From the NCBI GenBank assembly GCA_046563655.1, contig CM102285.1:5146001-5210000 (forward strand): a DNA stretch of 64,000 bases, in the 5' to 3' direction. Both the position numbers and the translations under genes were made by a program. Numbering within the stretch: position 1 is the first letter of the stretch; every line of letters begins with the position of its first letter. Source of the stretch: Yuukianura sp. NJ FZ-2021. Lineage: Eukaryota. The notes beneath the pieces are model-generated. The model worked only from the letters and a program-made list of their open reading frames with translations. It did no database searches and was not told where the DNA came from. Shown in pieces: positions 32,701 through 61,169 of this stretch.

Positions 32701-34220
32701 CTCGACTATGTATTAAACCGAACACAAAACAACTGCACACAGCAGAAATGAAAAGCTAAACAACACTAAAGTACACATGTGCTCATGTATAAGAAAAACG
32801 ACACTTCCACAACAATACAACAGCTCGAAATTCCTTTTTCGGCCAAATCCGACACAAAACAACAATTCAACACAAAGCCAAAATCCTCTGACACTACATT
32901 CATTAATTTAATTAGAACCTTGTTTCTTTCTCAAACCAACAAAAATTAACATGAAAACGAAATCAATGTCATGACAGCAACAGAATACGAGCAGCACCAT
33001 CCCCGCCATGTTGTTGTTTTTCAAAATGGCTACTTAGTAAGGCGACAGTGAGATCTTCACGCCATTTTGAATGTTCAAAATGGCCACTAGTCATAACAAA
33101 GGCGACCATCATGACCATAACGTTTTACACAAACGTTGTGGGGTGAAGGGAGGGCAGGGAACAAAAGTCGTGGGGTGAATGGGAGGGGCAAAAATGACTT
33201 TGTTCCAGTTGGCATGGCATGGCTCTAACTCCTCTCAACATATTGTGTTAAATTTCAAATAATTACTAAAGCTTTTGCTTGTCTTTATAACAGTTTGAAC
33301 GTTTCGTTTAAACGGCGAGTTTACATTAAACGTAAAATATATTACCCATGCAGAAAATTGCACAAAAAAGACATCAAATTATATCCGAAAAATGCCAAAT
33401 CAAATCAAGACATCAAATTAATTTGGTTGAATTATCAAAAAGAAAAATGCAGATATAAAATACTTTTACTGAGGTTTGGTTTTGGTTACTATGCTTTTAC
33501 TATTGAAACTGTAAGTTGTCTTATTATAAGCAACGACGTGCAAGTTTAATATTAAATTTTAAAATATTATTTGTATAATTGCATGGATTCTAGTCTTAAT
33601 TTGAAATTGTAAAACTTACATGAGTAGTGTTGTCCCCACTTAGTTTGTATTGATCACTACAAACTAACTAGGGTCCTGCAGCATAAGGGCTGGGTTGGGG
33701 AGGTGGCCTGGTGGGTCCCACGCGGGTGGCCCGTGTGGTGGCTTATGACCACCATACCTATGGCCATAGGGCATAACCTATACCCGTAGGGCATACTAAA
33801 AAAATCTGAAAAAGAAAAACAAATATTGGGAGTTAGGCTTTTTTATTTCCATCTTTTTATTCACAAAGGTTAGTGTTCGTTGACCTCTGTGACCTCCGAA
33901 TGAATGTGGGAGAGCAAGTGAGTGGTGAAGCCACAGAAAAGTCAGTACATAGAGATGGAATGAGTATGCCTAGCCTTATAGTAAGGTAAAAAGAACAGAA
34001 TGAGAACATCAAATGTAAATTAGTGTGAGTAACTTAGAAGTTGAGGAAGGGAAGAAACGAGTGTTTCTACTGCCTGTCACTAAAGTAAAAATAACCTTAT
34101 TTTAAGAAATGAAATGCATGTGAAATGAAACTAAACTTAGCCTAAAATTATGAACCGTCGGTTTACCCGCCAACATGCCGCCACCCCTGACACGATCGTG
34201 TCGGAAAAATACGTTATATA

Positions 34221-35879
34221 CAGTGGCGGCCAAAATTATTGGGACACCCAGTGTAAAAATTTTTAAACAACGATAACTTTTTAACGAAGTGTCATAATTA
34301 ATAACTCGATACGTCATTTTATTCAGAAAATAGTTCTTTCCAATCTCCCAAGTTTTTAGAACTTAAAGTCAAGCGGTTTATTTTATGGAATTTTTTAAAC
34401 TCAAAACGTCAAAATTCTCGCGGTCAAAATTATTGGGACAGCTGGGGTTTTGGAACGAAATCAACAGTTATTGGCATTAGTCTTCCATCGGTAAGTCACC
34501 TAACTTAATTTTTAGTACTTACTAACACTTGTAGTTAATTGTTGATTAGTTTTTCAGAGATGGTTGGCAATATCAAGGAAGTTCCAGGACCGATACGCGA
34601 CCTAATCATTCAAGGTTGGGTTGGTGACGAAAATGGTACAAAATCAGTTCGTCAGCTGTCCGAATTGTACCACGTACCCAAGTCAACAGTACATAGCATC
34701 ATACAAAGGTACCTCAAGACCGGTCATGTCGAAAACAAAGTCGGAAGGGGCCGTAAACCAATTCTTACTGAGAGGGAAGTTCGCCTGATCACCAAGAAAG
34801 TGAAGCTGGACAATCGAGTAAGCGCCGTAGAACTGTCCAAAACACTCAAAAGTGACCTTGACACCGAAGTCAGCCCCCGTACTGTTCAAAGAGTACTTTG
34901 CAATCAGAATTTGAGAGCTTTCAAGCCGTTGCGAAAACCGTTTGTGTCAAAGAAGAATGCAGCCAAGAGATTGAAGTTTGCAAAAGAACACTTTATGAAG
35001 CCGGTATCGTTTTGGGAAAGAATTTTATTGTCGCACGAGTCAAAGGTCAACGTTTTGGGGTCAGATGGACGAAAATATGTCCGAAGAGGTATTGGTGAAG
35101 CCTTAAAACCAAAGAACCTCAATGTGACTGTGAAACACGGAGGAGGCAGTGTCATGGTTTGGGGCTGCATGGCTACAAACGGGGCTGGAACCTTGGAATT
35201 TATTAACGGAATTATGGATAAATTCGGCTCACTTCGTGTCAAGGTCATTTTTGAGTGTTTTGGACAGTTCTACGGCGCTTACTCGATTGTCCAGCTTCAC
35301 TTTCTTGGTGATCAGGCGAACTTCCCTCTCAGTAAGAATTGGTTTACGGCCCCTTCCGACTTTGTTTTCGACATGACCGGTCTTGAGGTACCTTTGTATG
35401 ATGCTATGTACTGTTGACTTGGGTACGTGGTACAATTCGGACAGCTGACGAACTGATTTTGTACCATTTTCGTCACCAACCCAACCTTGAATGATTAGGT
35501 CGCGTATCGGTCCTGGAACTTCCTTGATATTGCCAACCATCTCTGAAAAACTAATCAACAATTAACTACAAGTGTTAGTAAGTACTAAAAATTAAGTTAG
35601 GTGACTTACCGATGGAAGACTAATGCCAATAACTGTTGATTTCGTTCCAAAACCCCAGCTGTCCCAATAATTTTGACCGCGAGAATTTTGACGTTTTGAG
35701 TTTAAAAAATTCCATAAAATAAACCGTTTGACTTCAAGTTCTAAAAACTTGGGAGATTGGAAAGAACTATTTTCTGAATAAAATGACGTATCGAGTTATT
35801 AATTATGACACTTCGTTAAAAAGTTATCGTTGTTTAAAAATTTTTACACTGGGTGTCCCAATAATTTTGGCCGCCACTG
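34221..35879 (+). mobile_element. Tc1/mariner derivative made of two inverted 5' halves, TA TSD
   Basis: Termini CAGTGGCGGCCAAAATTATTGGGACACC are flanked by TA. The transposase ORF from 34539/34560 has HTH, GRGRKP and VKHGGGSVMVWGC motifs and is truncated at about 35230. 35231-35879 is the reverse complement of 34221-34870. Confidence 0.92.
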
Positions 35880-36029
35880 TACATCTGTAAGGATTACCAA
35901 GTCCTCGACCAAAGTCACTCTTACTGCAGGTCGGATGGGTAATTCGGGCATTGCGAAACGTCACCCTCATCCTCCGGCAAAACTAAAAGGAGACCCAATT
36001 TGTGTAACCTCCTACAGCTCAAGCGACTC

Positions 36030-40145: not shown

Positions 40146-40304
40146 AGATTTTAAGGATACTTTATCATTGTACACCTTTCTTTGTCACTGCTTTCTTCAA
40201 ATAAAATTCCCTGAAAATCAATTTTTCTTTATTTATTTGTACAAAAATTCTTATTTAATGCAACATTGGCTTTGATTTGTTTTATTTGCATAAGATGTGG
40301 TTCA

Positions 40305-40628
40305 TGCTACAAGTTCATTTATGAACTTGTAAAATAAAGGCCTTGGAACAATTGAGTTTGTATAGCTTTATTTTACTTACATAGGAGAGGTAGGTTGGGT
40401 TAGGTTAACCCCAAGAGTACCTAGTTAGTAGGCGACCCCAGAGTAAGTTGGATCCGAACCAATCAGAGTCCGAATTTCAACTGATTTGAACAGAACTGAT
40501 CTACGGTATTTAAAGGAAATTTCTTAACCTAGACCTTAATGTATGACCTTAACCTAGCCTAAATAACAAAAACAATATTGGGAAAAACAGAACTATTTTT
40601 GAAGTACCATGGCAGAGAGTTGTTTCCT
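40305..40628 (-). repeat. 3' LTR of the Gypsy element (inner ~83 bp and PPT missing)
   Basis: Aligns to 59651-59975 with roughly 15 differences by eye, then diverges. Confidence 0.9.
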
Positions 40629-40688
40629 TAATACTCGTACAGAATATATTTTTTTTGTTGAATAAAGTGATTATTAACAGGAGTTACA

Positions 40689-41960: not shown

Positions 41961-44743
41961 TTAATTTTGAATTCTTTTCAATTCGTCAAACGGATATTTG
42001 GGTGTTAGACTATTAGGTTTACGAACCTCATTTAGAGTAGTACAGGAGTATTGGTTTTTAAAATTTTTTGGATTATTGTGAATGACCCGAGGTCGATTTC
42101 TGCGTGATTTGGTTCGGCGTAAAACCTGACGGGTGTGCATAACAGGTGCATGAATCTGTAAAGGAATATTTTCAGCTTCCGAATCGCTGCTAGGGATTTT
42201 CACATGTTTATTGCGAACTTTTCTGGTTTTCTGGGATTGAGAAAGGAGTTTGAGTCTTCTAAATATCTGTTGAAAGTAAGCCTTGTTTTTATACAAATAA
42301 ATATTTGAGTGTAAGGACAGCGATAAAAATTGCTAATCCGGACATGCAAATAGTAGCTAACACATTTTGGAATGGGGTTAATACGTATTCTCGTAAAAGA
42401 GTAATAGTTTTTGATTCAATAGGTCGTAAGTTAGAATTTGTATTTTGTAATATATTGTCATTTTGTTTTGTTTAGAAAGTTCTTTTAAGATAGCAGCAAT
42501 TGTCTCTGCGCCACCCACTTCGTCCAATGAATAGACTCCAGGGGCTGAGAAGGACAATTCCGGCATTTTTTTCAATTTTCAATAACCGTTCTGTTAGTCA
42601 AGTGAATAGTCATAGTTCCGTATTCAAAGTAAAACTTAGGTGCTGGACAAGAAGTATGAGTTGGGTCTTTTACAATTTCATGATTGATACCAGTTAAGTA
42701 CCCTTGAATTCGGTCCACGCCTACATAAAATTCAATTGGCCACTCCAGATAGCAACCAGTTTGAGGAAGTAGCATGTAAGTGTCAACTTCTTCACATTTA
42801 TAAACAGAAAGGATGTCTCCATTTGTTTTAGCTCGTAATGCTGGATATTTAGTAACGTGCGTACAAGTACACTAGGTTGTCCAGTAGCTGCTAGTACCCT
42901 AAGAAGTTCTAAATGTGCTTGATGGGCTTTGCACGTATCGCGATGAACAGTTTGAATACCAAAATGGTAAGAACTTGAAACAATTTGATATAAGTAAAGT
43001 AATCGGCTATTGAGTTCTCCCGTAGTTACCAATGTTGGAGTTTCGGGTTTTTCTGGTGCTGGTATTAATAGTTCAGATAACTTAGGTATGAGAGTTTCAC
43101 CGTCTTGTGTTTTAATTTCCTCCGCGGAACCTTCATCTTCTTCAGAAGAATCATCGTCATGAGAACGTTTATAACGTGTGGGATCATTGATTACATTCCG
43201 CGTGAGATTCGTAAAAGAAATAGCAAAAGGATGGTTTCGGATTTTGGACATGACTTTCAGCGTGGAAAAGAGCATCAACCCGATAACGCAACATTCTGAA
43301 ATTTAACAGACGTCATGTAGCCTTAGAGTAGAATCGATGTTCAAAAAATTGGCGTGATGCGTTTTCGGGTTCTAGTCCAAAAGGGACGCCAAAGTTGACC
43401 ATATTTTGATGGAAAGAATCACAATCTTTCATTTATTTCTCGTGCAAAATAGTTTTTAACACTTGGGTTTTAAACACGTGCACATTTTGAAAGTTTCGAT
43501 TGCAAACGTTGCACAACTAAAAAACAGGTTTTACTTTGTGCACAATTTCAAATTTCGGGTTTTTAATTTTTATTTTGCACAATTTCTAACTTTTAAGCGT
43601 ATCCGCTGCACATTTTCCTTGTTTAACGTTTTTAGAATGCACAATTTCTAGATTTTGTGTTATTCGCAGTGCACATTTCAAAAAGTTTACGTTCGAACAT
43701 TGCACAACTTTCGTACCTTTTCTGCAGTTGTGTTGCACAAGATCAAACTTTCTGGTTGTCACATTGCACAGTTTCGAACCTTTTGTTTTTAAATTGCATA
43801 TTTTCATAAGTTATAATAATGAGAATCAACCGATTGTAAACCGGATATACGTAAGTAACGTAAGCTCTGTTCAAGTCCGGCATAAAATAATTATCGGTGT
43901 CAGACAACGATAAGTATTGATTTTGGTAAGTGAGATCCAATTCTAAATGAGGCCATTTTGTTTTTCATTGATTTCGAAGAAAGAGCCAAAAGTTTAAAGT
44001 ATGTAGCAGTTTTAGATTTTTGAGAAGTAAGCAACTTTCAGCTTTTTGAAGAATTTATGTTAATGAAACAGTTTCCTTTTAAAACACCTTGGCTGCACCT
44101 GTTGACTGTATAACTGTGTTGTAGATAGTTGACGTTAATGGACTGACAAAAGAAAGGTGACTGACTAAAGAAAGTCTGATCCATGAACGGCCAGACAGAC
44201 AGACAGGCAGGGCCAAACCATAAAGTAGCTTACGCTATTTAGAAATAACAGGTGTTTCACAATTTCGAGCTTTTCGAGTTTTGATGCTGCACAAGGCCGA
44301 AAGAATTGTGCAACATTTTGCACATTTGTGAAAAAAACAGGCGATTTAAAACGTTTTATAACGTTATTAATTGGGCCGGAGAAAATACAAACAAACAAAT
44401 GGCGCTGGGCCGGATTTTCTACAGAAACCCGAAACCATCCTTTAAAGAATTATTACTCTCGGTGAAAATAATACCTTGAGCAGATGTACCGAAAATCAAT
44501 CCACATTTTTTAACAGGAATGACTTTAGTAATGGCAATTTCTAATGTTGGACATGACAGACGATCTTCAGTAAATAAACATGTAGCAGAATCACCGTCTT
44601 TCATCCTACATATCTTCACGTCCTTTGGTGTCCAACAAAGAATTCCATTTTCTGTATCACATGTACCTGTCTAATATTTACATTGTCCAACGGTTTTGGC
44701 GGTAGTAATTATGGTATCATCTGTATTTGATATCGAAAGTGTC
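41961..44743 (-). pseudogene. env: Envelope-like fusion glycoprotein (probable class III, gB/chuvirus-G-like), degraded and interrupted
   Basis: Cys-rich GQCKY*TGTCDTENGILCW, a furin-like RYKR site, TC..HQAHLELL...GQPSVLVRTLLN and, after a frameshift, GDILSVYKCEEV...GCYLEWPI...C. The N-terminus is missing beyond the BEL LTR. Confidence 0.65.
43229..44440. mobile_element. Non-autonomous TIR element (1212 bp) inserted at AAA^TTT without TSD (Spy-like)
   Basis: TIR GGATGGTTTCGG...CCGAAACCATCC with flanks AAAA and TTTA. Excision rejoins env in frame (ESNNSL-N-FAISF). Internal degenerate TGCACA-containing repeats lie at about 43460-43800. Confidence 0.85.
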
Positions 44744-45185
44744 TGTGAGCGCTCAGCGCGACTCACACTCCTCCTCGTCTCGGATTGCATACCAAATAAG
44801 GATAGAGATGAGAGTGCTTGTTGCACATGCACAAGAAGAGCATAAAAGGGAGTGCAACAGAGGAATAGGGAGCTCTGTATGGGGTTGAGGCGAGACTAGA
44901 GAGGTTAGCATGTAACAGTACTAGGGCCCTAGGATAGGTCGTAGGTTAAGTGCTTGTAGGTTGGACTAAGGGATCCCAATAAAGAGTGTCTACCTGAACT
45001 GGTGGTGTGTCGAGTGGGAGTTTACCTTATTGTCCCTTTTGGGGCTGAAACCATAACTGGGAGTGGCAGGTCATACTTGAGACGGGATCAGCGTTCCGTC
45101 CGCTATACAGTCGACATAGGCTCCACTGAGTTCTCGGTGTGCTTCTGGTCGGTGTGACGACTCATCCGCACCGGCAGAGGTCACA
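44744..45185 (+). mobile_element. BEL/Pao-type 5' LTR
   Basis: TGTGA...TCACA termini, a TATA-like CATAAAAG and an AATAAA at about 44978. It is followed 3 nt later by a tRNA-Tyr-type PBS and interrupts env at 44743. Confidence 0.8.
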
Positions 45186-45188
45186 TGA

Positions 45189-45206
45189 TGGTCCTTCGAA
45201 CCGGAT
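45189..45206 (+). promoter_or_regulatory. Primer-binding site (tRNA-Tyr type)
   Basis: TGGTCCTTCGAACCGGAT matches 17/18 of the complement of the tRNA-Tyr 3' end (TGGTCCTTCGAGCCGGAT), a PBS commonly seen in BEL/Pao elements. Confidence 0.85.
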
Positions 45207-45455
45207 AAAAATTTTTTTTTCTCTCTCTCCGTCCTCTTACTACAACAATCACAACGGTGAACAGGTAAAACCCAAATAAACACATCTTTGAGCCAGAGAC
45301 CAGAGAACAGGTAAAAAATAAATCATTCGCAATCTATTTCTTTTACTATCATACATCATTACACATCACTAATTCAGGCAACCTTTTTAACCTGCAACAA
45401 AGAATTGAAATTTTTTGCAGTATTCCTGTTTCAAACTAAACCAGATTTTGATTTC

Positions 45456-48400
45456 TCAAATAATATATCTATCCTTATTCAATACTATATTCTCTTGTGC
45501 ATCGAAACAATACCTAAAATCCCAACTACAATATCTTCTGCACTCTATGACGTCTTCCTTCGAATCCTTTATATTACCGCACATACATCTAAAACACTTA
45601 TGAGCTTCCCTAGTTTCGCCTAACGTGCTCAAAATATCCTCCCATGATTCCCAACAGGAAATGCAACGAACGCATTTGGTGCGGAAATGTCGCGAAAGTC
45701 CTACCCTATCCTTAAAAAATTCGTCGCAAAATCCACAATGAAATTTACATCCAATGATACGGGTTCCCGAAATTTTTCCTCTTAAAACATGCTCCTCTTT
45801 TTCCTTGTCCTGAAAATCATAAAAAAAAATACAAGATGTTACAATCTTCAATTCCTATATTTCAATTCCTATTGGAAATATTAATTACCGTGTCACAATA
45901 TTTCCCGCATACACAGTATTTCTCAGCCGTACAATTTATCAACCGATGATAGTCGTTTAGATCCACGCCGGTCGCTCGCCCGCATACACATTTTTGATAC
46001 AATAAGTTCCAGGGTCTATGCCTTTGCACATGACGATCTATGTCAGTTATGTCAAAGAAATACTTGATTCGTTTACGGCCCACTAAGACTCCGTCATCAT
46101 TCTTTTGTTTGCAAACTGAACAGCATAGCTTTAAAACACCGGGAATGGGTTTTACCAATGTACCCTTCTGTAGGCAACCTGTGAGTAACAACCCCATAGG
46201 CATCACAAACAAAACTAAGACTAAAAAGAAAGCAATTTTAATTTACTTAGAAGTATGTGCGGAACTGTATAAACATCTTTAGGACGGCCATTTTGCGTAC
46301 TGAAAGGAGGCTGAGCAAGGAAAGCGCCTTGAGCATAGCTGTCATAATATAATTTCAAAGAAACTGGAGAATTAACCTCGTCAGATCCAAGTAAGTACGA
46401 GGAAATTCCGATATGATAGTTCCGGCCATCTTGGGGATTAAAACGCGACGCACCAATTTTTATAAGAGGAAAGTTCCCAATGTCACACTAATAATAAGAT
46501 AGAAACACAACATTAGATTGACTATATTAAAAATTAGACAACTACTTGCTAGCATTTTCCATACGCCTAACCTAGTCTCAGTTACCTGTGACTGAATATG
46601 AGCATCCGTTGTATACAAAGATAAGCTATCCGTTATTACGGACATATCCGAGTACTCTGCTAGCATTGAGCTATTACCATCTCCTAGAGCAGCGGCATTA
46701 GCAGTAGATTCTTCTTCATCATCACTGCTAATCACATCAGGGGGTTTACAACTCATTATCCAATACAGGCATTTTGCAATCGCAATTGGGAACGAGAAAC
46801 CCTCCATAGTTAAAGTAGGCCCCGCGCGGAAATCAGGATCAGAATTATTCTTTGTCTCCTTCTTATACCAATAATATAGTATCCTCTTGGTCAAAACGAA
46901 TACTCGAGAACCTTCAGGAGTAACGGTATTATCCAGATGAGTGGTACTAATCCAAGTATGGGGTAACTTAGGGTCACAAAAGTGACACCCCGAAGTTCCA
47001 CGGATAGACCTTTTCCCGGGTTTACCTTTTCGTTTTTCCAGCAGTAACTAATTGAAACATTAATTACAAAATTAATACATAAAATTGAGATTCCGAGCTA
47101 TCAGAATTTTCGAAAATCATAAGTGGCACCTGTAATATTATCTTTAATCTCCTGGTTTCTTGAACCTCGGGTTTCTCAGTATGAGTAAACTTCCAATGAA
47201 GAAACACCAACAGGTTCAGGAGAAAGATCTTATCCTCCCTTAATTCAGTAAGTAAGCGTGTGATCGGCAGGAACGGCACGATCTAAGAAAATTAGAATTA
47301 ATTACAGGGAGCATATTTAGTCCTCTTACAATAAAATAAGTAAAACTAGTACACACGCTAACCTTCTGGTAGTTAAAAATCACCTTCAACTCAAACAAAT
47401 GAACCAATAGGCCATGTAATTTGGTATTATTGGAAACCAGTTCATAAAACTCCGAAACAGCTCTGCCACATAATAAAGGTTTCGTTTTCTGCAAAGTCTC
47501 AGCGTTTTTATATTTCCGGAAAAATTCGTCCAGATAATTTTTGAAGCCATCCGAATTTCGTTGCATAAACGCAGGCAAATGAGACACCATTGCATGAGTT
47601 ACCATCGAGGAAGCACCCGCCCGTACTGGAGCACCTATAAAGGGAAATCTTTAACAATCAAAACAGGACAAGACAGGGAAAGAAACAAGGGAGGGCGGTG
47701 CTCAAGGTTGAGCATAGGTCTTCAGGTAGGAGTCAGAAATTGATGACTCTTAAACCGGCTGTCTGTTGAAAAATCGAACCCTGAGGACAGTTAGTCGAAT
47801 ATCGTTTCTTAAAATCAAAAGCGGTTCAAACAACTGCACGAAGTGTTATTAGGGGCATAAGCGGTGGAGTCGAATATCGCTTGTTGAAAATGTAAATTAT
47901 AAAAATTTCTTGCAAAGGCAAATTCGAATCCTGCTAAATACCGCCTACGTATTAACAATTTAAGCCGGAATTTCCACCCTTGAACTAGGCTCAATTTGAC
48001 AACGTAATTATAACTAGGGTTTAGCTCCCATAAGAACGTGTGTCGGAACCTGCTCCCGTAAGAACGTGTCGGAACCTGCTCCCGTAAGAACGTGTGGCGG
48101 AACCTGCTCCCGTAAGAACGTGTGGCGGAACCTACTCCCGTAAGAACGTGTGGCGGAACCTACTCTCATAAGAACGTGTGTCGGAACCTACTCTCATAAG
48201 AACGTGTGTCGGAACCTACTCTCATAAGAATATGCGTCGTAACTTACTATCAAGCTCAGGGTCCGAACTTAATTTCTTAAATCAGCCGCGCAGAACCTGC
48301 ATCTAGACAGTACAAGGTAGGGCGGTGCTTGAGGGATTAGTATCGGACTTTTGGAGGAAAATTGATTCAACTTAAACAAACCTGCTACAAAAACTGTAAA

Positions 48401-49207
48401 GGAACTCAAAAAACCGTTTTCACGGGATCAGAATGAAAACTAACTCCACACCTTGTTAAATACTCTTACATAGAAAGAGTTTAAGCCACACTTTTTACAA
48501 TCCAACAAGCCAAAATTTAATAACATACATAACAATCTTGTAAAGAAGAAATGACCAGATAAAGACTTCATTCTTAATCTCAATAGTATTCTCCAGTAGT
48601 TTATAGACATACGTCCCGGGGAGCAGTAAAAACGAAATAAGTTTAACTACTTACCAACGGGGACTTCAGGAACCGCTTGGTTCTCACTCGCACTCGTTTG
48701 AGAGCAGCGTTCTACATCACTTATAGGGGAGTGACTAACGGTAATTGACGTCTTTTTCTGAAATATCTTCCTCTGAATTTTAGCTTTGGTGGTAACTTTC
48801 TTCTTTCTTGCAGTTTTGACCTCTAAAAAGACAAAGGAAAAACAGTAAAAACTGAAAAATTTTTAGCTTTTCAGAAATATCAAATCCAAACTTACTAAAA
48901 TTTTTGCGCAATTGCGAAGATTTCCGCGGTGATTTTCCTCCAATTAACTTTGACATTCCACGAGGCTTTCCCATCCCAGAAGGGGCAGCAGGTCCCGCAA
49001 TGACCCCTGAACTGGTAGAAGGAGTAGCCTCAGCAACTATTATAAAAAATACTGTAATATAACGCCTATGTTATACGATCCGATAAAAAGAAACAAAGAA
49101 AAGAAAACTGGAAATACAAAACATTGGATAATTCACAAGTCAGTTATGAGTAGGAAGCGAAATTACATACCTTCTGGCTTTCCCTTTCCAACTTTCGTCC
49201 GAGCCAT
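45456..49207 (-). CDS. Unknown 705-aa protein with histone H3-tail-like N-terminal motifs and Cys/His zinc-finger-like C-terminus; 9 exons (49207-49171, 49036-48896, 48822-48655, 47634-47363, 47282-47130, 47047-46586, 46487-46247, 46178-45889, 45809-45456)
   Basis: AACCATGG start context. Eight GT-AG introns (134, 73, 1020, 80, 82, 98, 68, 79 nt) are all phase-compatible, giving 2118 nt with no internal stop. The protein begins MARTK and contains GGKSPRK and KTARK. Confidence 0.78.
48025..48246. repeat. Tandem minisatellite, 8 copies of a ~28-bp unit (CTCCCGTAAGAACGTGTGGCGGAACCTR), in intron 3 of the H3-mimic gene
   Basis: Head-to-tail units of 26-28 bp with no spacers. Confidence 0.95.
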
Positions 49208-52200
49208 GGTTACAGATTTTTTTTTTTCTACAATTAACCAAGGTGAAAATCCACAAGTATAAATTCACTTATAATCACCCCTCCACGTCCAACAGGCCTC
49301 AACTATTAGGTCTACGAAGGAATACTTAAATTCGCAAGAATTTTGCAAACTGACCCAATCAACACACGACCCGTTGAAAAAAGTATTGGCAAAAAGGCAG
49401 GAAAAGCTAAAAATAAACAAGTCTCGAAAAATGCAACTTTGGCACACAACTAATTTACATAGCTAGTAGGAAGACTACTCAGGGTGAAAAGAATACTATT
49501 AAGGAGCGCAAGAAGAAACGTTTCACAAAAAGTTTTAATTTTAGAATTAGAAAAAAAATCCAAGAAAGAAAGAAAAAAAAAACAACAAAGCTGCCAAATT
49601 TTGCCGAAAGTTAGCGCACAAACGTTTTACATGCCAATATCCAGAAGACCAGACCAAAACATTATTCACGAAAATCCATTGTCTCAGTTTTCACACAACA
49701 CAGCATTACACCGGTTAAAAAGGCGTTGTTACTTCTAGCTTACAAACGGACTTGGGAAGTCTTCCATAATGCCAGTACACCGAACCCCCGGATTCCTCCA
49801 TGTTACATCCGTAACTAGCATGCAACGAAGTATTAACACAGATAATTATCAACCAAATCCGCTGGATGCTAAACTTAAGCTAGGTAAATGGACTTCAGCA
49901 AAAGTCTGAAGCCTTTCTCCAACTGACTTAACAAACGGAAACGGTTTTTCCACAGTAGACATACAGCACTGTAAAGGAGTGGACTGGGAGTGAAACAAAA
50001 TCCATAGCACCTTGGTTTTGAAACAACAATTTTAACACAACCGGACTTATAAGCATTTTATTTATCTTGTCTTCAAATAATTATTTTGTTTATTTTTCAC
50101 CATATAACCACAAGTCTATTGTATAAACAGCGATTTACAAGTTCAAGAGCGGCTTCTAGACCAAGCAGAAAAAACAGGTACACAAACGTAATTGAACTCT
50201 TTTAACAAGTACTCATTTTACAGTACAACTTAAATGACACACGCGCTGAAACTCAATATTTAGCGGTTAAATGGTAGGACTGCCCTTCCTCGTGCCCTCC
50301 TTGGACCATCATCTACCGGCTGAGGAATTTGGGAAGAAAGAGGTTCCGGGATGGCCACAATTTTTTGAAGAATTGTGAATATAAGGTCATCCAGAACACC
50401 CCAAGGGGTGGCATATCCAGAGTCAAGGATACGATCTTCAATAAAGCGCAATATGCACTCGGCAAGGTATTCCTGCACCTCTTCCTCTTGTTGTACATCT
50501 ATCCAATTTAATAATGATTTATAGTAAATAATGTCAAAAGAAGTATATCCAGTGGAAAAGGGATGAGTCAATTCTTGTCTGGTTCCAGTAAAATTTTGTT
50601 TTAAAGTTAAAAATAGTTTCTCGGGAGAGTCTAAATCTTCTTTTAAATTGTCAAGAGTAGTGTAATATGTATCACTTTCGATATCTGGTAAGTCCTAAGC
50701 AAAAATTTTCCGCATTCTTCCTACGTGTGCTGTGGAAACGGTATTTGTTTTTAAACATTTAATTTTATAGAGGAGATCATTAAGTTTTTCTAAAATCTCA
50801 AAATTCCCTGAATAAAATTTTTTTAGATTGACCTTTCTCAGTGCGGCGAGGAAATTTGAGTTTAATTTTGTCTTCAATTTTAAAGTCGACTTCCTTACGT
50901 CGTTGATCCTCACGAATTTTATATCTTTCTTGTTCTTTTTCTAAAGTTTCTTTTACAAGTTTACGCAGATGAAAAATATCGCAATTAGAACGTAAAGTCT
51001 CAGAAGAAGGTAATTGATAAGGAAATGATGGCTCACGGTTAAATACAATACGATAGGGACTCTGATGAGTAGTTTCATGTTTAGAAGTATTGTAAGCAAA
51101 TTGAATTTGTTCTAAATTTAGGTCCCAGTCATTGTGCATTGTGCTGACATAATGTGATAGCATACGATTCATTGTTAAATGTAACCGTTCAGCAAGTCCG
51201 TTGCCCCTAGAATTATAAGGCGTGATAAATAAATGTTTAGATTTGTATAACCTGCAGTAAGTTTTCAATAATTCACTTATGTACGGTCCTCCGTTGTCAC
51301 TTAATAAGTAACGAACAGAACCCATACGTGAAAAAACGCTTTCGTGTAAAAATTTAGCAATAGTTTCAGCTGTTTGGTCAGGTATCGCTTTAAGCCCATT
51401 TAGAAAAATGACAAATAATATTGACAATATACTTGTTTCCTGATTGGCTAATTGGGTATGGCCCACATACATCAGTTGAAACCAGTTCAAAAATTGTTTC
51501 TGGAACTGGAAGTGGTTTAAGAAGCCCGTATCTTTTTTCATGTGATACTTTATTAATTAAACACGAGTTGCAAGCATGAATAAAATTTGACAGATCAGCA
51601 GCAATGGATGACCAAAAATAACGCAAAGAAAGTTTATCAAAGGAGGGTGAAGAGCCCAAGTGTGCCGAAATAGTTTGTTCGTGTACTAATTGTAGTAATT
51701 CTTTTCTGAGTACTCGAGGGACTACCAGACGTGGGTATGGGTATTTGTAATTGTATAGAATGCCATTTTTGAGTTGAAATTTAGGTTTTGATACAGATTG
51801 AGACATTTTTTCTATAATTTGGATACAATCGGAATCAGCTAACTGTAATTGGTATAAGCGATCTTCAGAAATTAAAAAACTTGGTGCCTCTATATCTGTT
51901 TCATCGAATTTGTCAGGAAGGGGAAGACGTGAAAGACAGTCTGCTAATTTATTAAACGTTCCTTTACGGTAAACAATTTTATAGTCATATTGTTGCAAAA
52001 TTAATGCATATCTGGCTAATCGGGAAGAAGTCTCATTTTTAGCAAAATTTAGTCCAGTAATGGGTTGATGATCAGTAAAAATTGTAAAGAATTTAGAGTC
52101 CAAATAAAGGTGAAATACCTGTAATGCATAAATTATGCTTAAGTACTCACGATCTGTAGTAGAATATTTAATTTGAGTTTTATTTAAAGTACGGGAAGAA

Positions 52201-53926
52201 AATGCAACAGGTCTTTCAACCCCATGTTCATCGGGTTGCAGTAAGGACGCTCCTAACCCGTATCCGCTAGAATCAGTAACGACATGAATAGGTTTATTAG
52301 GGTCGTAATGAGCTAACACTGGGGCTGTGAGTAATGCCTTTTTCAAAAGTTGGAAAGATTTTTCTTGCTGTTCTCCCCGATGAAATTTCGTATCTTGATG
52401 TAATAAAATCGTAAACGGTTTGGCAAGTTCCGAATAACGATATATGAAACGACGAAAGAAACATACGGCTCCGAGAAACTGTTGGATTTCCTTTATGCTC
52501 GATGGAGTTTTAATTTCCGAAATTGCTTTAGTGTTTTCGGGGTCTACTTCAACTCCATTTTTAGATACAATGTAGCCTAAAATGCGAATAATTTTTCCTC
52601 GTAAAAATTGGCTTTTCTTAATATTTATTTTTAATCCATATTTTCTAAATCGTATAAATGCTAGTTCCAAATCCTTGACATGTTCCTGAATTAATTCCTT
52701 AAATTGCTAAAAATAATGTCGTCCAGATAATTAATTAAATTAGTCTAAATGTAATTCATCAGAATAATTGAAAGTGACCTTGAATCGGCGGCAGGCGCTC
52801 CACAGAGGCCAAAAGGAAGTTTAACAAATTCAAATAACCCTGATTGGCTAATGAATGCAGTTAACGGTATACTCTCTTCGTCCATTGAGATTGCCCAATA
52901 GCCTTTTTGTGCGTCTAAGGTTGATATTTTATGAGCCCTAGGTGCGATCCAGTCCAATATAGATTGATTGTTTGGCAATGGATACGCGTCTTTAACTGTA
53001 ACTTTATTAACTGGACGGTAGTCTATACAAAATCGTGGCTCTTTTTCCTGTTCAGACTTATGTCCGTCTCTAACTATTACTACTCCCGCTCCCCAAGGAG
53101 AACATGATGGTCTTATTACTCCTAATTTTAAAAGTTAATGAATTTTGTCACGTTCAAATTTTTCAAGATCTGGAGCTTTCCTATACGGGGCTCTTTTAAC
53201 TGGGGAAGCATTTGGAATTATCGTAATTTTATGTTTATAACAATATATTTTACCAATTTCGCCAGGTTTGGCAAACACATCTTGATATTTTCGAATTATT
53301 GCTTCAAGCAGTGCTTTTTCTTCGGACGAAGCTGTTGAAGCAATTCTTGCCAGAATAGCCTGAACATGAGTTTCGTCATTTATTAATGGATTACTGTCGG
53401 CTGGTGTACTAGAATTTTCAGAACGACATTCAGCAATATTCAGTACTTTTTCTTCAATTGGAAGATTTTCTAAAGTACTGATATTAGCAATTTTAGTATT
53501 AGCCGAAATTGTAATCGGGAAATCATGAATATTCATAAGTGGAAGAAACAAAAATTCATCCGAGTAAATTGATCGTAACAAAATGGGTGGCATTAAGATA
53601 CCTAACTCAATTAATTCATCACTAATTTCTAAATAATTCAAGTCATTAAGGTGGCCATTAAGCTTTACTTTAACTAATTTTACTAACCTAGCCGGCAATA
53701 TTAAATTATTAACATTATGTACAGAAGGATCCTGGTTGTGTGTCTGGTGTTGTGTAGACGAGAGCTCTGATGCTAACGCGTTATGTAACTTAATGTTATC
53801 TAATTCATTACTTGTGTTCCTAAAACTAAAATCGTTATTATTTTTCACATTTTTTATATCTTGGTTTATTTTTAACGCTAACACAGTGTGTTCTTTCATT
53901 GTCAAAGTAATGGGTTCATCATTCTT

Positions 53927-54187
53927 AAGTTTATTTTGTTCTGACAGCTTGTGTCCTTCCATTTCTGCCTGAATGGGTTCATTCTTCCTCTGAATTATTA
54001 TTTTTTGATTCATAAGTTTATTTTTTTCTTACAGCTTGTGTCCTTCCATTTCTGCCTGAATGGGTTCATTTTTCCGCTGAATTATTATTTCTTGATTAAT
54101 AAGTTTATTTTGTTCTGACAGCTTGTGCCCTTCCATTTCTGCCTGAATGGGTTCATTCTTCCTCTGAATTATTAAATTTTGATTTCT
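53927..54187 (-). repeat. Three in-frame 87-bp (29-aa) tandem repeats in the protease-RT linker
   Basis: NQxxIIQRKNEPIQAEMEGHKLSEQNKL occurs three times, and the middle copy has a TAA stop at 54031-54029. Confidence 0.9.
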
Positions 54188-54481
54188 ATTTTTAATTTGA
54201 CATAATAATACCTTTTTATTCAATATTCGTTGTTTTAATTGTTTTGAATTATCATCGTTATGTAAAAAGTTATTTAAACTTATTGGTTCAATTTCTAAAT
54301 CAATTCCTTGCCAGGAAACTTTCTCTTCGGAAACATTGAGAGAAATCTTTTGGAACTGACAAAAATCTAACCCTAACAGTAAGTCAAACATTAAACTCGG
54401 TACTAAGTAAACGTTAAAATAATAAATACTAATTTTATTAATTTGAATTCGAATTCTCGCCCAGTGGGTAACGGAAACTTT

Positions 54482-56852
54482 AGTTTTCATTTTTCGGATG
54501 TACTCCAGTTGTGGAATCTATTTTTATTGAGAACAATATCCAAGCTTTTGAACAATTGACTTTGTCCTTTTTCAGGGAAAATTTTAAATTAGAAAAATGT
54601 TTTAGTAAGATCTATAACTTCAGTGAGAAAAATTTTAGGTCGTAGTTGTTGACGGGAAAAATTTTCGTTTCTGTAATTTCTTTGCCATGGGGACGAGCAG
54701 GGGTTTCCAAATTGGGTTGACCTTCATTCCGCTGTCTCGATTTTAATTTCCCGATTCCGAATTGATCAGAATAGATTCGTAGAATTTCCTGTGGAAATTT
54801 TTTGGCCTCTTCAAAATGAGACTTGCTGAGTCGAATAAGATGTTTTGATTTTGAAAGTCCTTCAAATGTTGGACAAATGCTGAATTTTCGTTGTGTTTTT
54901 CAACATCTTTCTTGTGTTCTGCTACCCGAGTTTGTAAATTACGTCCTGTTTCTCCGATGTACTTTCTTTTACAATTGCATTGGATTTCATAAACTCCTGA
55001 TGTCATTGATTTTTCTTTTTCTTTGTGGTTACAAAGCATGTTTTTGATTTTGGCCCCAGGAATATATCCAAAACTGCAATCAAATTTTTTGTGAAGGAGT
55101 TTTGAAATTTTAGAAGTCAATGACCCGACATACGGAAGTATGAATCTTTTGTCATCTTGTGAGCTTGGGTTAACTTGATTCATTTTCAGTTTTTCTTTCA
55201 TTTTCTTGAATCTGGAGAGGATAAGTGTTCGTGGGTATCCATTGTGGACAAGTTGGTTGAAAATGTGATTTAGTTCATCTTCGATATAAGGACCATCACA
55301 AATTTTGAGGGCTCGGAAAGTTAATGAGTCTATCACCGACATTTTATGGGAAATGATGGAATGATTGGAAATTTAGATATCTTCCGGAATGAGTCGGTTT
55401 TCGGAAAATCCTTTTCGAAATATTTGCAGCTTCGTTGTATTCAAGTTTTAAATCCAGAAAATTGATTTTGCGATCAACATCTGATTCCAAAGTTAATTTT
55501 AAAGATGGATGGAAGTTGTTGCGGATCGAAAGAATTTCTTCAATTTTGTCTGATTTTATGCAGGCGATGATGTCATCAACGTAACGTTTGAAAAAAGCAA
55601 TGTCTTGGTGTGGGAGAATCAGTGATTCTTCGATGTACTGCATGCAGAATTCGGCAATTAATGGGGAAATTGGGCTTCCCATAGGAGTACCATGCACTTG
55701 CTTGTACAATTTTCCTTTGTATTGGAAAAAATTACATTCTGCTGCTAGTTCGAGTAGAGAAAAAATGTCGTTCAAATCTAGAGAAGTTTCCGATTTCCAT
55801 CTTGTGTCCGCGATCAGTCTTTGTTTCATGTATTGAAGTGTAAGATCCACTGGAACATTTGTAAAAAGTGAGACGACATCGAATGAAACCAATCGGTATC
55901 CACAAGGTACTTTAAAAGTACTTATAATTTCAGAAAATTGGAAGGAGTTCTTTAAATACGTTGGAAATATCGTTGTTATTCCTTTCAGTATTTTGTTGAG
56001 ATAAATCGCGAGTTCGTAAGAGACTGATTTTCTGAAATCGACGATTGGTCTGAGTGGTACACCTTCTTTGTGGATTTTGGCAGACCGTAGAAAATTGGAA
56101 TTCTTAAATCCGAATTGGTTAAAATTGTGTATAATGATTTGTTTATCCTCTTCCTTTTGAGCATATTCTTGCATTTCTCTTTGATTGCTTTCTCATAAAA
56201 TTTGCTCGGGTCGGATGGTATGACTCTGTAGCTTGTATCTTGTAACAATTTTTCAATTTTTATATTGTAGTCTTCCTGGTTTAAAATCACAGTAATATTA
56301 CCCTTGTCCGCGGGTAGAATTGCGATTGACTTGTCCGATTTCAGATTTTTCAGAATTGGAGGTATCCAGTTGTATTTTGATTGATTATCAGATTGTGTGG
56401 GTTGATGGCGATGCACAATGCGTGAAATAGAACTTCTAACAAAATACGAATTTGTGTTGTTTTCGGCATTTCCTCGGGGGAATTGTAATTCAGTGTTAAT
56501 TATTGTATCAAAAACTTTCTTGTTGAAATTGTTTTCTGGGATGGCAATATTTAGTCCCAAATTTAAAAGTTTTTCTTCTTCGGAGGTAAGTTTTCGATGG
56601 GAAAAATTCTTTGTGCTTGGAATCGTGTGGAATTGATCCAGATCACTTATGTTGATTTCAAATTGGTGTTCAGTGTTTTTGCCGAGTAAATTCGCAAATT
56701 TTTTGCGATGCCTTTCTTTGGTTTTGGTATTTTCACTGTTTACTGCAGCATCAACTTTTTCGAAAATGAAATCCAGACATCGTGTTTCTAAATTCGTTAC
56801 GAGTTGGATTTGTATTGGTTCAAGTTGTAATTCCAAAGTTCTCCGAAGTTTC
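54482..56852 (-). mobile_element. 5'-truncated Penelope-like element (RT plus GIY-YIG endonuclease) with 13-bp TSD
   Basis: Motifs PADKGN, PLRPIV, SFDVVSLFTNVP, GTPMGSPISP, RYVDD and GVYEIQC..YIGETGR. TAACGGAAACTTT occurs at 54469-54481 and 56853-56865. Confidence 0.93.
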
Positions 56853-56998
56853 TAACGGAAACTTTCCCTGGACCTATACCTACTAAGTTCATATTAAATT
56901 TAAGTAAGTTTCTGTCTTGAATAAATCGTGGATGCACTAAGGATACTGTACTCCCAGTATCAATTATAATTTGAGCTGGAAGGTTATTAATTAGACCG

Positions 56999-58219
56999 CT
57001 AATTCTGATTAGGCCACCGTTGGTGCCTAATATAAAAGAATATTCGTAAGATTTTAGTTGAGCGTGGGAGGAAACATGGGTTGCTGTTGGTGTGGATTTT
57101 GGTAATACTGAACTGGGGTAGGATTGGAAGTTGAATTTTGATTGTTTTGAACGAGTTGGATGAATTGTTGGGATTGGTATGGGGGAGTATAGTAATTGTG
57201 AAAATTTTGGGTTGAACGAGGGTTGTAGGAGGGATTCCTCGGCCGAGGTTGGTAAGTTTGAAAGCAAAAGGTTGGGAAAATTGGAATCGAGGACGGTAAT
57301 TGGTATTCATGCGTTGTTGGTATATAACTGGTCGAGAACCCATGGCATACCTGGGCCGTGGACTCCGGCCAATTGCGTTTTTTAAGCGACATTCGTAGGT
57401 AGAATGTGTAGTAGAATTATGAATTTGACAGAATTTTTTGTCACAATTTTGAGCAAAATGTGAATCCGATCCACATGAATAACATTTAAAATTTTGCTTA
57501 TTTGTATTATTTTTTGAACTTTTTCTCTTTTCTTTATCTTCATGTAATTTAGATAAATCCTTCCGGTTTTTCAGAATATTAGTGATCAGAACAGTCTGAT
57601 TTTCAAAAAGTTTTGTGAGTTTGTCCATTTCTGGTTGGACCTCACTAACGGCATTCACAGAAGCATTTTGTTCTAACATAAATTGAGTTTCTGCGATTTT
57701 TCGTCCTGTACTAATTAATTCTTCTATAGTTTTTAAATTTAGAGGGTTTATTTTTTCTAGATAGTATGGTAATAGAGACCTTGTAATCTTCCGTAATTTT
57801 ACGGCTTCAGTCATATTAGGGTCATGATCATTACACAAATCAATATAAGCATATACAAAATCCTCAAAGCTTTCACCTAATTGTTGTTTTCTGTCATTTA
57901 ATTTCTGTTCCGCTATTTCCTTGTTAGCGACAGTTTGAAAAGCGCGCTGGGGCGCTTCAGTTAGTTCAGCCCATGTAATTGCTGGCTCAGTGTCACCTTC
58001 CTTAGCAGTTGCTTTATGTTTTTCAGTCCGTTCTTTCTTCCAATTTAGGTACCACAAACTAGCCGATGCAGTCAGATAATTTGGAAGCTGGACAACTTTG
58101 ATTTCATTTGTCCAAGAGTTAGCTATGCTAACTAGTTCGAATTGTTGTAGCCATTTGAATGCATCGTCTCTAGGACTAAATTTGGTTGGAACAATTCCAA
58201 CTTTGGTAGGTTTACTCAT
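56999..58219 (-). CDS. gag: Gypsy gag (frameshifted near the C-terminus)
   Basis: Retrotransposon-gag-like WLQQFELVS..NSW, ASLWY and RKQQLGESFEDF motifs, a zinc knuckle CYSCGSDSHFAQNC and a second CQIH...H...C motif. Confidence 0.9.
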   Translation of the reverse strand: MSKPTKVGIVPTKFSPRDDAFKWLQQFELVSIANSWTNEIKVVQLPNYLTASASLWYLNWKKERTEKHKATAKEGDTEPAITWAELTEAPQRAFQTVANKEIAEQKLNDRKQQLGESFEDFVYAYIDLCNDHDPNMTEAVKLRKITRSLLPYYLEKINPLNLKTIEELISTGRKIAETQFMLEQNASVNAVSEVQPEMDKLTKLFENQTVLITNILKNRKDLSKLHEDKEKRKSSKNNTNKQNFKCYSCGSDSHFAQNCDKKFCQIHNSTTHSTYECRLKNAIGRSPRPRYAMGSRPVIYQQRMNTNYRPRFQFSQPFAFKLTNLGRGIPPTTLVQPKIFTITILPHTNPNNSSNSFKTIKIQLPILPQFSITKIHTNSNPCFLPRSTKILRIFFYIRHQRWPNQN

Positions 58220-59637
58220 TTTGGTTAGAAAATTTTAACTTAACTTTAACTGATTTTTATTGATTCAAAGTGTAAAAATAAAAAATAATGAGTAATCCTA
58301 GGCCAATAATTATAGTAAAAGCAAGAGCTAATTCGAAAAGTAAACTAGCCGTCCAATAATTTTCTAGTTTAGCAGCTCGTTCTTCATCCATTTGAATATT
58401 CTTAATGTGAAACGTTAAATTAAATCAATTGCAAGAAAAAAATTAGAACATATATGCCGTTGTTTTTTCTTCTAAACTAACGTTGCTTTCAGAATACCCT
58501 GAATTTTGGTTCAATCGAACGGAAAATTTCGCCTTAATTAATTTCTTTTCCCATTTTGAAAAAAAATTAAAAGTATTTACAATGATTGCTATACCACAAA
58601 TTGATGTGTTTGCTACAATTAATGCAGTGGACTGAAATAAGTCTCTTATTGGTAGGTTTAACAGAAACGCTTTTGTTAAACTAAAATCCCAAAAAATAGT
58701 CGTAGAATTTTGGGAAGATAGGAAATGAAGATTTGGACTCAATTTAGCAGTGTGTTGTAAAAGCTGATTTTTGATTTCAAAATATTTAGTCGTTAGGATA
58801 AATGTGTGAATTGCAATTTATTAGTTTGAAGTGCCAAATTGAAATTGAGAATATCTTGTGATGTCAGAAATGATAAAATGTGTTCTATTAAAGGAAAATC
58901 TAATTTAATCATTTGTTCAGAATTTTTGTTCTAACTTGTAGTATGAGAATTTATTACGAATGTCATTTGTGAAAACGAATAGAAAATTTCTTACCAAGAA
59001 GATTTCTACAGTGTTTATCTAATTCGCGAAATTTAGTTGCTTCAAGTTGAATTGAACAAATCTGTTTCTCAAGTAATACCTTAAGGGTAGATTTAAACAA
59101 ATCTTTTAGTAACAACGTTCCCAAGAAAGTTTTAGTCAAGGTGTTGACACATCCAATAAACTGATTAGTTCTCCTGAACACGGAAGAAAGTGAAAGCGGT
59201 AAATTTGCTAAATGACTTTTTAATTGATTATGAGAGTTTTCAAAAGTATTGAAAGTGTAAGTTTTTAAGAATGATGATTCTGAACCTGTCACTGCTATTT
59301 TAAAATTTCTTAAATCGTTAAAAGTTAAATATACGAAAATCTTATAAGAGAACGGAAGAAAAAATTATAAGAGAAGAAAATGAAGTGCACATGACTTTGT
59401 TTTTACCTTTACTGTCGAATTGGAGAAAACTTCTCTTCAAATCCGAGTAAAATGAGGGTATCTTTTTTGTTGGCAAGCAGTCACGGGAGTTTTTATTTTT
59501 TGATTTTTGAAATCATTTGAAAATGAGCGTAGATAGAAACCAATTTGAAAATGAAAATTAATTTTGCATTGAAAATTATTTGAATTTGGTTCGGCCCTCC
59601 AAGTACCAAAACGTATTTTGGAATTATGAGAGGTCGC

Positions 59638-59648: not shown

Positions 59649-59650
59649 AA

Positions 59651-60058
59651 TGTTACAAGTTCATTTATGAACTTGTAAAATAAAGGCCTTGGAACAATTG
59701 AGTTTGTATAGCTTTATTTTACTTACATATGAGAGGTAGGTTGGGTTAGGTTAAACTCAACGAGTACCTAGTTAGTAGGCGACCCCGGAGTAAGTTGGAT
59801 CCGAACCAAACAGAGTCCGAATTTCAACTGATTTGAACAGAACTGATCTACGGTATTTAAAGGGAATTTCTTAACCTAGACCTTATGGTATGACTTTAAC
59901 CTAGCCTAAATAACAAAAACAAGATCTGGAAAAACAGAACTGTTTTTGAAGTACCATGGCAGAGAGTTGTTTCCTAAAGTACAAGGTCATCTAAGGGACT
60001 CAAGACGAAAACAAAATAACAATGCCTCTTACTTGTTGGGTTTGTGGGATGTGTAACA
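59651..60058 (-). repeat. 5' LTR of the Gypsy element, 408 bp
   Basis: TGTTACA...TGTAACA inverted termini, with the PBS on one side and the TSD on the other. Confidence 0.92.
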
Positions 60059-60517: not shown

Positions 60518-61165
60518 TTAAATAAATGCAATACTACATTTTAAATGGTTTAATGTATCCACAAATGTTTGTGCGACAAATTTCACATTTCGAAATTGAG
60601 AGGACGCAGTCGATGAGAGGACGCAGTAGCAAAGATGGCCGCAAGCCAACACAAGGTACTGCTCTCCTGCTGGGCTCAGGCAAATGACGCACTCGAGCTC
60701 CAGCCCATTCTTATTGACCTGAGGCTCGGTTTCAACGGCTTGATCATTGGGAGCGTCGACTTCGTCAAAACCTTGAGGCTTGTATCCTACCGGTAGCAAA
60801 ATAAATGGCCATTGAGGGTTGTAATTTGCATGGTCAACGATTGGATCGTCTTGCCTCTCCCATTCTCCCACGCCGAGCCCGCAATAGAAGCACACAACGT
60901 GGTCATCATCTCCGTAGTAACAGAATCCAGCTTTTGCCAAGTGTTCTGGAGGTGGGTATGGTTTTGGAAAAGCTACAAATGTTGGAATTCGCTTATCCAA
61001 AGACGCAAACTTTGGAGACTTTTGTCCCTTACCATTCACAACGCCATAAGTGTTGTACAGTAACTTTGTTGTAATTTTCAAGCGTTCGGTGATCAACTGA
61101 ACCAGTTCTGTGATTACATCACCAATAGGATCCATTTTCAAGTCAAAACTAACTCTTCTCTGCAA
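60518..61165 (-). pseudogene. iap: Intronless viral-type inhibitor of apoptosis (single BIR plus RING), degraded
   Basis: RIPTF...LAKAGFCY.G..D.VVCFYC...W...DDPIVDH BIR, whose last Cys reads Trp. The RING CVIC...LACGHLCYC is broken by a frameshift. Confidence 0.85.
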
Positions 61166-61169
61166 AATT

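Follow-up and report, generated by a model that had tools for sequence, protein, structure and literature searches.

How does a gene of nine exons come to stand, with its reading frame unbroken, inside a decayed long terminal repeat (LTR) retrotransposon, and what might its product do if it begins with the very residues that open histone H3? The locus lies in Yuukianura sp. NJ FZ-2021 (NCBI GenBank assembly GCA_046563655.1), in a stretch of 64,000 nucleotides (nt) at positions 5,146,001 to 5,210,000 of contig CM102285.1. This whole stretch is called the window here, and coordinates are counted from its first letter on the forward strand. A first-pass annotation, made from the sequence alone, had taken the segment 45456 to 49207 for a retrotransposon-borne gene encoding a histone H3-tail mimic with zinc fingers, and had proposed a chromatin decoy or anti-silencing factor. 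The sequence pattern exceeds chance on several counts, and the gene is probably real and lineage restricted. The reading that we favor, tentatively and at somewhat less than even confidence, is a host-type orphan zinc-finger gene that is lodged in a dead element and whose product, with an N terminus of the H3 mimicry type described below, would be a DNA-bound adaptor for factors that bind the H3 tail. As it stands, the gene is a well-formed prediction rather than a discovery.

An intact nine-exon frame

Joining maximal open segments at canonical splice sites yields an open frame of nine exons on the minus strand, from 49207 down to 45456. All eight introns are of the GT..AG type, T-rich tracts precede their acceptors, and their lengths are, from intron 1 to intron 8, 134, 73, 1020, 101, 82, 98, 68, and 79 nt. 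The spliced product comprises 698 amino acids (aa), with a single stop at its end. The annotated nine-exon gene with eight phase-compatible introns is thereby reproduced in silico. Its length of 705 aa is recovered when exon 4 is extended by 21 nt to another phase-0 donor, so that it ends at 47363, while our default model gives 698 aa. Unguided enumeration returned 27,930 stop-free splice paths, and consensus scores alone are insufficient to fix the model; the one used here was picked by eye as the choice with maximal open reading frames (ORFs), and its exact junctions are predicted.

The start codon has a Kozak-type context (ACCATGG). Exon 1 (49171..49207) encodes MARTKVGKGKPE plus 1 nt and ends at the donor AAG/GTATGT. 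Within 1.36 kilobases (kb) upstream of the remaining gene body, 4 of 20 ATGs open an ATG-to-donor segment that is phase compatible with exon 2. Of these, the exon starting with MARTK lies closest, and its donor is the best, agreeing with the consensus at 8 of 9 positions. Because only these four candidates are phase compatible, the MARTK exon was not chosen from among many.

Composition points to real coding sequence. In the spliced frame the density of stops is 0.001, whereas the other two frames have 0.053 and 0.086 and the introns 0.07 to 0.095. Exons have a GC content of 42.0% versus 27.9% in the seven short introns, the kind of contrast that true exons should show in an animal genome rich in AT. 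As the first-pass annotation had observed, the frame is intact while its neighbors are decayed, with the gag, protease, RNase H-integrase, and env-like ORFs fragmented over several frames. For a neutral copy of the 2.1-kb coding sequence and its 16 splice dinucleotides, the probability of remaining intact is about 4e-4, given a per-copy divergence of 0.025, an assumed indel-to-substitution ratio of 0.1, and a gene already present when the LTRs started to diverge. This comparison of an intact frame with broken element ORFs is the sole argument for selection on the gene; it is indirect, and it would be void if the gene arrived later.

Several noncoding features accompany the gene. Intron 3 (47635..48654, 1020 nt) contains an array of eight 28-nt tandem units at 48025-48248 and, at about 47744-47977, a high-copy short repeat on which very many contigs from all four of the DNA runs described below pile up. 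The low-copy gene segment, read on the minus strand, closes about 240 nt past the stop with (GA)n followed by A9 (window positions 45212-45229), and a run of A11 lies 10 nt before the ATG (49212-49229), without a target-site duplication. No tRNA-like sequence was found in 43500-49500, and no Rfam family was matched in 40000-60200.

A basic N-terminal tail with H3-like motifs

The first 115 aa of the predicted protein contain 18 Lys and 7 Arg versus 6 acidic residues. Exon 2 (48896..49036) is rich in Ala, Ser, Pro, and Gly and then becomes basic, with GKPRG and GGKSPRKSSQL, the latter containing an SPRK site; exon 3 (48655..48822) is lysine rich, with KTARKKK and TTKAK, and continues into a Ser/Thr-rich linker. 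The H3-like strings that had been annotated are all present, as MARTKVGKGKPE with MARTK at the very start, GGKSPRKSSQL at residues 45-55, KTARKK at 62-67, and TTKAK at 70-74. Given the predicted exon 1, removal of the initiator Met would leave an ARTK terminus that equals the H3 residues exactly, as the annotation had proposed.

When the first 115 aa were shuffled 200,000 times with their composition preserved, MARTK at the start occurred at a frequency of 9e-5, GGKxPRK at 8.5e-5, TARK at 0.0077, and TKA at 0.12; the start and GGKxPRK are therefore rarer than composition gives. In a more lenient test with 20,000 shuffles, any 7-residue window of TGGKAPRKQL was matched at 6 or more of 7 positions at a frequency of 0.00105, and QTARKS at 4 or more of 6 positions at 0.088. 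Even if the large size of the scan is allowed for generously, the joint rarity of the motifs holds up. Two cautions apply: SPRK is generic, being also a basic-tail (SPKK-type) site and a cyclin-dependent kinase (CDK)-type site, and the likeness consists of short motifs only.

None of the eight exon ORFs matched the Pfam Histone family at an E value of 1 or less. When searched with phmmer against all PDB chains (E≤10), exon 2 gave four matches and exon 3 none, and no histone was among them. The predicted protein thus has no histone fold, as had been noted before. It shares with histone H3, CENP-A, and CENH3 the first five residues, Met included, and six of the seven positions of the GGKAPRK segment, but it differs from them in lacking the fold and in having its motifs split over three exons, which argues against the capture of a piece of an H3 gene. 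An ARK[ST] site, the form read by HP1-type chromodomains, is absent from the protein, the nearest string being ARKK at residue 64.

An orphan central region and a Cys/His-rich C terminus

A central region of about 370 aa, an orphan within the searches made, begins in exon 4 (47384..47634, or down to 47363 with the alternative donor, which adds 7 aa). Exon 5 (47130..47282), exon 6 (46586..47047), and exon 7 (46247..46487) follow; exon 6 is the largest, with 154 codons, and has a basic start (RKGKPGK) and an acidic run of Ser, Asp, and Glu at its end. The gene appears to be an orphan, since large-library and contig searches with exons 6, 8, and 9 yielded no homologue. For exon 6, word-index searches of longer proteins and of proteins of near length gave no match, none of 140 pattern matches in JGI metagenome contigs was confirmed, the PDB gave no match, and the ESM atlas returned nothing usable. 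A phmmer search of exon 6 against 1.84 billion representatives gave a single match (E value of 8.6e-5), which we judged to be spurious, as it covers only residues 5-39 and involves an internally repetitive protein of 413 aa. No paralogue was detected by tblastn within the 64-kb window. Single-sequence AlphaFold2 models had a mean predicted local distance difference test score (pLDDT) of 35.3 for exon 6 and 41.5 for exon 9, too low for a fold search.

The last 214 aa contain 22 Cys and 7 His. Exon 8 (45889..46178) carries CSVC..x26..HVQRH and two CxCG units, while exon 9 with the stop (45456..45809) carries a CCHC finger, further Cys clusters, and a third CxCG unit; the three clusters named in the first-pass annotation (CSVC...HVQRH, CGFC...SRHFRTKC, and CFRCMC) are all there. 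The finger, at residues 606-627, reads C-x2-C-x12-H-x4-C and has the aromatic and Leu positions usual in classical fingers. Its Pfam matches are below threshold (zf-C2H2_4, E value of 0.014, 16.5 bits against a cutoff of 27; zf-C2H2, E value of 0.028, 15.3 bits against a cutoff of 25.2). Its best PDB matches are fingers of CTCF and ZFP57 (E values of 0.012-0.022), and the ESM-atlas leads for exon 9 are all C2H2-type clusters, at values of 0.87-0.89 that lie under the 0.9 line. Support for a classical-type CCHC finger in exon 9 is thus weak but consistent. The three CxCG units and the CSVC..x26..HxxxH pair found no database counterpart. A word-index search with exon 8 gave no match, none of three viral-contig matches was confirmed, and its PDB rows, triosephosphate isomerases at E values above 0.3, were dismissed as chance. 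For exon 9, none of 85 matches in metagenome contigs was confirmed.

Zinc-finger proteins with an H3-like start are a described class

H3 N-terminal mimicry proteins (H3TMs), as defined in the account of Chen et al. 2021 (PMC8166343), start with iM-Z1-R2-X3-K4, in which Z1 is a small residue that permits Met removal. That account gives 48 H3TMs for the human proteome, with chromatin-binding proteins overrepresented, and names zinc-finger families among them (SALL, BCL11, FOG, TSHZ, and HIVEP1), several of which bind NuRD in the unmethylated state and, once K4 is methylated, PHD or Tudor readers. The predicted start MARTK matches the corresponding expression ^M[GASTCPV]R.K. The first-pass annotation had stated that it recognized no such gene, which in view of these described regulators with an H3-like N terminus was too strong. 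The predicted protein resembles SALL1-4, BCL11A/B, FOG1/2, TSHZ1-3, HIVEP1, and VRK1 in its start pattern, here an exact A-R-T-K, and in a basic, low-complexity N terminus. Like the members of several of these families, it would be a zinc-finger protein; the likeness seen is one of start and fingers. It differs from them in two further H3-like segments, GGKSPRK and TARK, which go beyond the H3TM definition.

A related concept is found in zinc-finger repressors, DNA-binding proteins that recruit RBBP4 by means of a short peptide resembling the H3 tail; the NuRD-interaction motifs given for them are an N-terminal RRKQxxP and an internal RK(x)xxPxK/R (PMC11602157).

Other histone-tail mimics are more distant. 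Influenza NS1 (ARSK) and SARS-CoV-2 ORF8 (ARKS) reportedly act as such mimics, and ARKT mimics of the G9a type are also known. These share with the predicted protein the use of short linear motifs that copy modified sites of the H3 tail, but theirs stand in an ARK[ST] K9/K27 context and usually internally or at the C terminus, whereas here ARK[ST] is lacking and the strongest match is the free N terminus. Since histone-like short motifs are described as widespread in viral proteins (PMC11738798), function should not be read from such motifs alone. Among the listed titles and abstracts on histone mimicry together with transposons or retrotransposons, none mentioned a transposon-encoded H3-tail mimic.

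The gene lies within, but was probably not copied with, a decayed LTR element

A direct repeat at 40304-40634 and 59650-59982 is about 95% identical, with 15 mismatches and two one-base gaps. Read on the minus strand, it has the TG..CA ends of LTRs, and a TGG-starting stretch resembling a primer-binding site follows the right-hand copy. The 5' LTR (59650..59982) and 3' LTR (40304..40634) bound a minus-strand element of 19.7 kb that is Gypsy- or endogenous retrovirus (ERV)-like. On this strand follow gag (57002-58234; Retrotrans_gag, a weak match with an E value of 0.0011), two protease halves (56800-57306 and 54032-54517, both weak matches), RNase H with the integrase zinc-binding and core domains in two overlapping frames (50801..52706), and an env-like ORF fragment (42575..42871). 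The last of these matches Pfam Monjiviricetes_fusion (E value of 1.1e-5, 24.0 bits against a cutoff of 27), an env-like remnant of the viral fusion-glycoprotein type in a Gypsy-like element, and Cys-rich ORFs lie at 44419-44895 (minus strand). Between the protease halves, at 54746-56192 (minus strand), stand an RVT_1 and then a GIY-YIG endonuclease domain, those of a Penelope-like element that apparently inserted there, within the protease region of the surrounding element. The earlier description of nested LTR retrotransposons therefore holds insofar as the gene is inside an LTR element, but what was found is one LTR pair, within which a non-LTR, Penelope-like element is nested, and not several LTR elements. 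The pol region also contains a tandem repeat of three 87-nt units (53915-54198), and the env region contains a second very high-copy short repeat (44000-44467) that has no other copy in the window.

About 5 kb of additional sequence separates the integrase remnant from the env remnant, and the nine-exon gene lies there, on the strand of the element. Its annotated location inside an LTR element is thus borne out: it lies between the LTRs and has the orientation of the coding strand, the minus strand, to which gag, protease, RNase H-integrase, and the env-like ORF all belong. That the gene is borne by the element is unsupported, given its eight sense-strand introns, host-like base composition, and lack of terminal inverted repeats and target-site duplications. 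Passage through element RNA is hard to reconcile with this structure, because eight spliceosomal introns in the sense strand should be lost on the way. The gene has a GC content of 0.42 and a GC content at third codon positions (GC3) of 0.39, close to the three host ORFs of the window (0.42/0.42) and above gag-pol of the element (0.35/0.27). It resembles the extra ORFs of LTR retrotransposons and ERVs, considered here together with transposon anti-silencing proteins such as VANC of VANDAL, in lying inside an LTR element downstream of pol and in the sense orientation, but it differs from them in its eight spliceosomal introns, its host-like composition, and the absence of any sign of multiplying with the element. 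Transport as cargo of a DNA transposon was considered and rejected: around the gene, the longest inverted pair is an 18-nt low-complexity run and not a terminal inverted repeat, the presumed borders share no common word of 9 nt or more that could be a target-site duplication, and the flank segments have no other copy within the window. The gene is probably lodged in, but not copied through the RNA of, a dead element.

Diverged copies in contigs of the same sample

Contigs of four DNA runs were aligned to the window. Two of the runs (X1 and X2) come from one sample, and a third (X3) carries another organism label. Contigs of X1 and X2 cover the window at 99-100% identity and include diverged pieces besides. 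Those at about 85-89% identity run across both exons and introns of the gene (45645-46470, 46746-47400, 46837-47283, and 48236-48836), and at least one diverged, older copy with the same intron layout therefore exists in this sample. In X3, exons 9, 7, and 6 are represented by identical but patchy, low-depth pieces, while the flanks are covered by deeper contigs that are 2-4% diverged; this pattern may reflect repeats, a polymorphism, or carry-over. The fourth run (X4) has no cover over the gene body; a joint between 44365 and 49259 in its contigs was disregarded, since it rests on only 21 letters.

Other features of the window

At 8314-12138 lies a transposon of the PIF/Harbinger type, with an ORF of 834 aa (DDE_Tnp_4, E value of 9.4e-17) and flanking inverted repeats of 598 nt that are 98% complementary. 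An ORF for a helix-turn-helix transposase of the Tc1/mariner type lies at 34216-35884 within arms of 649 nt that are 99% complementary and 371 nt apart; this is a palindromic, internally deleted copy. Host-type exons at 19877-22715 (plus strand) encode an AAA+ ATPase (AAA, E value of 2.3e-26, and AAA lid), and a host-type ORF with a BIR (IAP) domain (E value of 3e-17) stands just outside the right-hand LTR at 60521-61222 (minus strand).

A putative locus-bound adaptor and the alternatives

In the reading that we favor, the gene is real or was so very recently, low copy, lineage restricted, and of an ordinary host type, given its nine exons, introns that are mostly short, and a start codon in a Kozak-type context. 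Its product would be a nuclear zinc-finger protein of about 700 aa in three parts, namely a tail of about 95 aa, disordered and strongly basic, in which A-R-T-K comes first after Met removal and GGKSPRK and TARK follow further on, an orphan central region of about 370 aa, and a C terminus rich in Cys and His, about 214 aa long, that contains one or more CCHC fingers of the classical type. The zinc modules would bind nucleic acid, and the H3-like N terminus may serve as a docking peptide for RBBP4/NuRD or for PHD or Tudor readers of the unmodified or K4-methylated H3 tail. The tail would probably also act in nuclear import and in contacting DNA. The protein would thus work as a locus-bound adaptor or regulator rather than as a free decoy.

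A number of observations weigh against this reading. Exon 1, and hence the ARTK start, is predicted only, and an X3 contig over 49146-50052, which includes exon 1, departs from the window sequence 25 nt after entering intron 1, so that there is some copy or allele in which this gene body does not follow exon 1. The first 1.9 kb or so past the stop contain neither AATAAA nor ATTAAA on the minus strand, and no homologue of exons 6, 8, and 9 was found in the large-library and contig searches. Because SPRK is a generic site, GGKxPRK is less specific for H3 than its frequency in the shuffles implies. RRKQxxP is found neither in the first 15 aa nor elsewhere in the protein, and the one match to the internal NuRD consensus (RKGKPGK, residues 256-262) has counterparts in 5.5% of 50,000 shuffles. 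Codon usage gives conflicting results: GC and GC3 are host-like, but the relative synonymous codon usage (RSCU) of the gene correlates at 0.58 with the ORFs of the element and at 0.31 with the three host ORFs, both from small samples.

The gene may also be real with an H3 likeness that has no histone-related function, in which case the tail would be an ordinary lysine-rich tail for nuclear localization and DNA contact and MARTK a coincidence thrown up by a very large scan. This we consider unlikely, though well worth keeping in view: phmmer does not retrieve H3 even at E≤10, the motifs are scattered through about 75 residues and three exons and a gap of 43 residues separates ARTK from GGK, TARK and TKA are unremarkable alone (0.0077 and 0.12), SPRK is a motif of basic tails in general, and histone-like short motifs are said to be common across viral proteins (PMC11738798). 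On the other hand, an exact MARTK start (9e-5) together with a six-of-seven match to the K14/K18 segment (1e-3) is jointly rare, only four first exons were there to choose among, and starts of the form M-small-R-x-K are reported as enriched in human chromatin proteins (PMC8166343). It is more doubtful still that we are dealing with no working gene at all, but with a copy duplicated or inactivated so recently that its frame is still undecayed, or else with a gene body to which the wrong first exon was assigned. The missing relatives of exons 6, 8, and 9 in the searches run, the lack of a canonical poly(A) signal nearby, and the low ESM "recognition" value of exon 6 (1299) would fit such a copy; a 2.1-kb frame with 16 splice dinucleotides that is intact where the surrounding element is broken, a strong contrast in composition between exons and introns, and a well-formed finger motif speak against it.

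Two further proposals give the H3 likeness more weight, and both are improbable. We see a slim chance that the protein is a "tail-only," multisite mimic of H3, encoded by a gene that is possibly ERV resident, in which ARTK, K14/K18-like, and K27-like segments follow in the order of H3 and are fused to zinc fingers. With similarly little confidence, such a mimic would compete with or replace the H3 tail at bound loci and thereby shield the element or other targets, or else nucleate silencing. The original proposal, in which an LTR retrotransposon carries the gene and its product is a chromatin decoy or anti-silencing factor with a tail that baits H3 writers or readers, we regard as very unlikely. 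It would account for a gene within an LTR pair, between the integrase and the env-like ORF on the coding strand, for H3-like motifs beyond chance, and for an RSCU nearer to that of the element ORFs (0.58) than to that of the host ORFs (0.31). However, eight sense-strand spliceosomal introns would be spliced from the genomic RNA, the diverged copy retains its introns, GC and GC3 are host-like, the element is decayed and contains a nested Penelope-like insertion, and no ARK[ST] site is present.

If expressed, the adaptor that we favor would be an orphan zinc-finger protein of invertebrate type with an exact H3 N terminus, and it would extend H3 N-terminal mimicry beyond the human proteome, for which it was defined. 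Its 12-residue N-terminal peptide and tail of roughly 95 residues would offer a compact test case for the recruitment of H3-tail readers. The position of the gene between pol and env would mean either that intron-bearing genes can settle and survive in such elements or that the remnants of the element supply a promoter.

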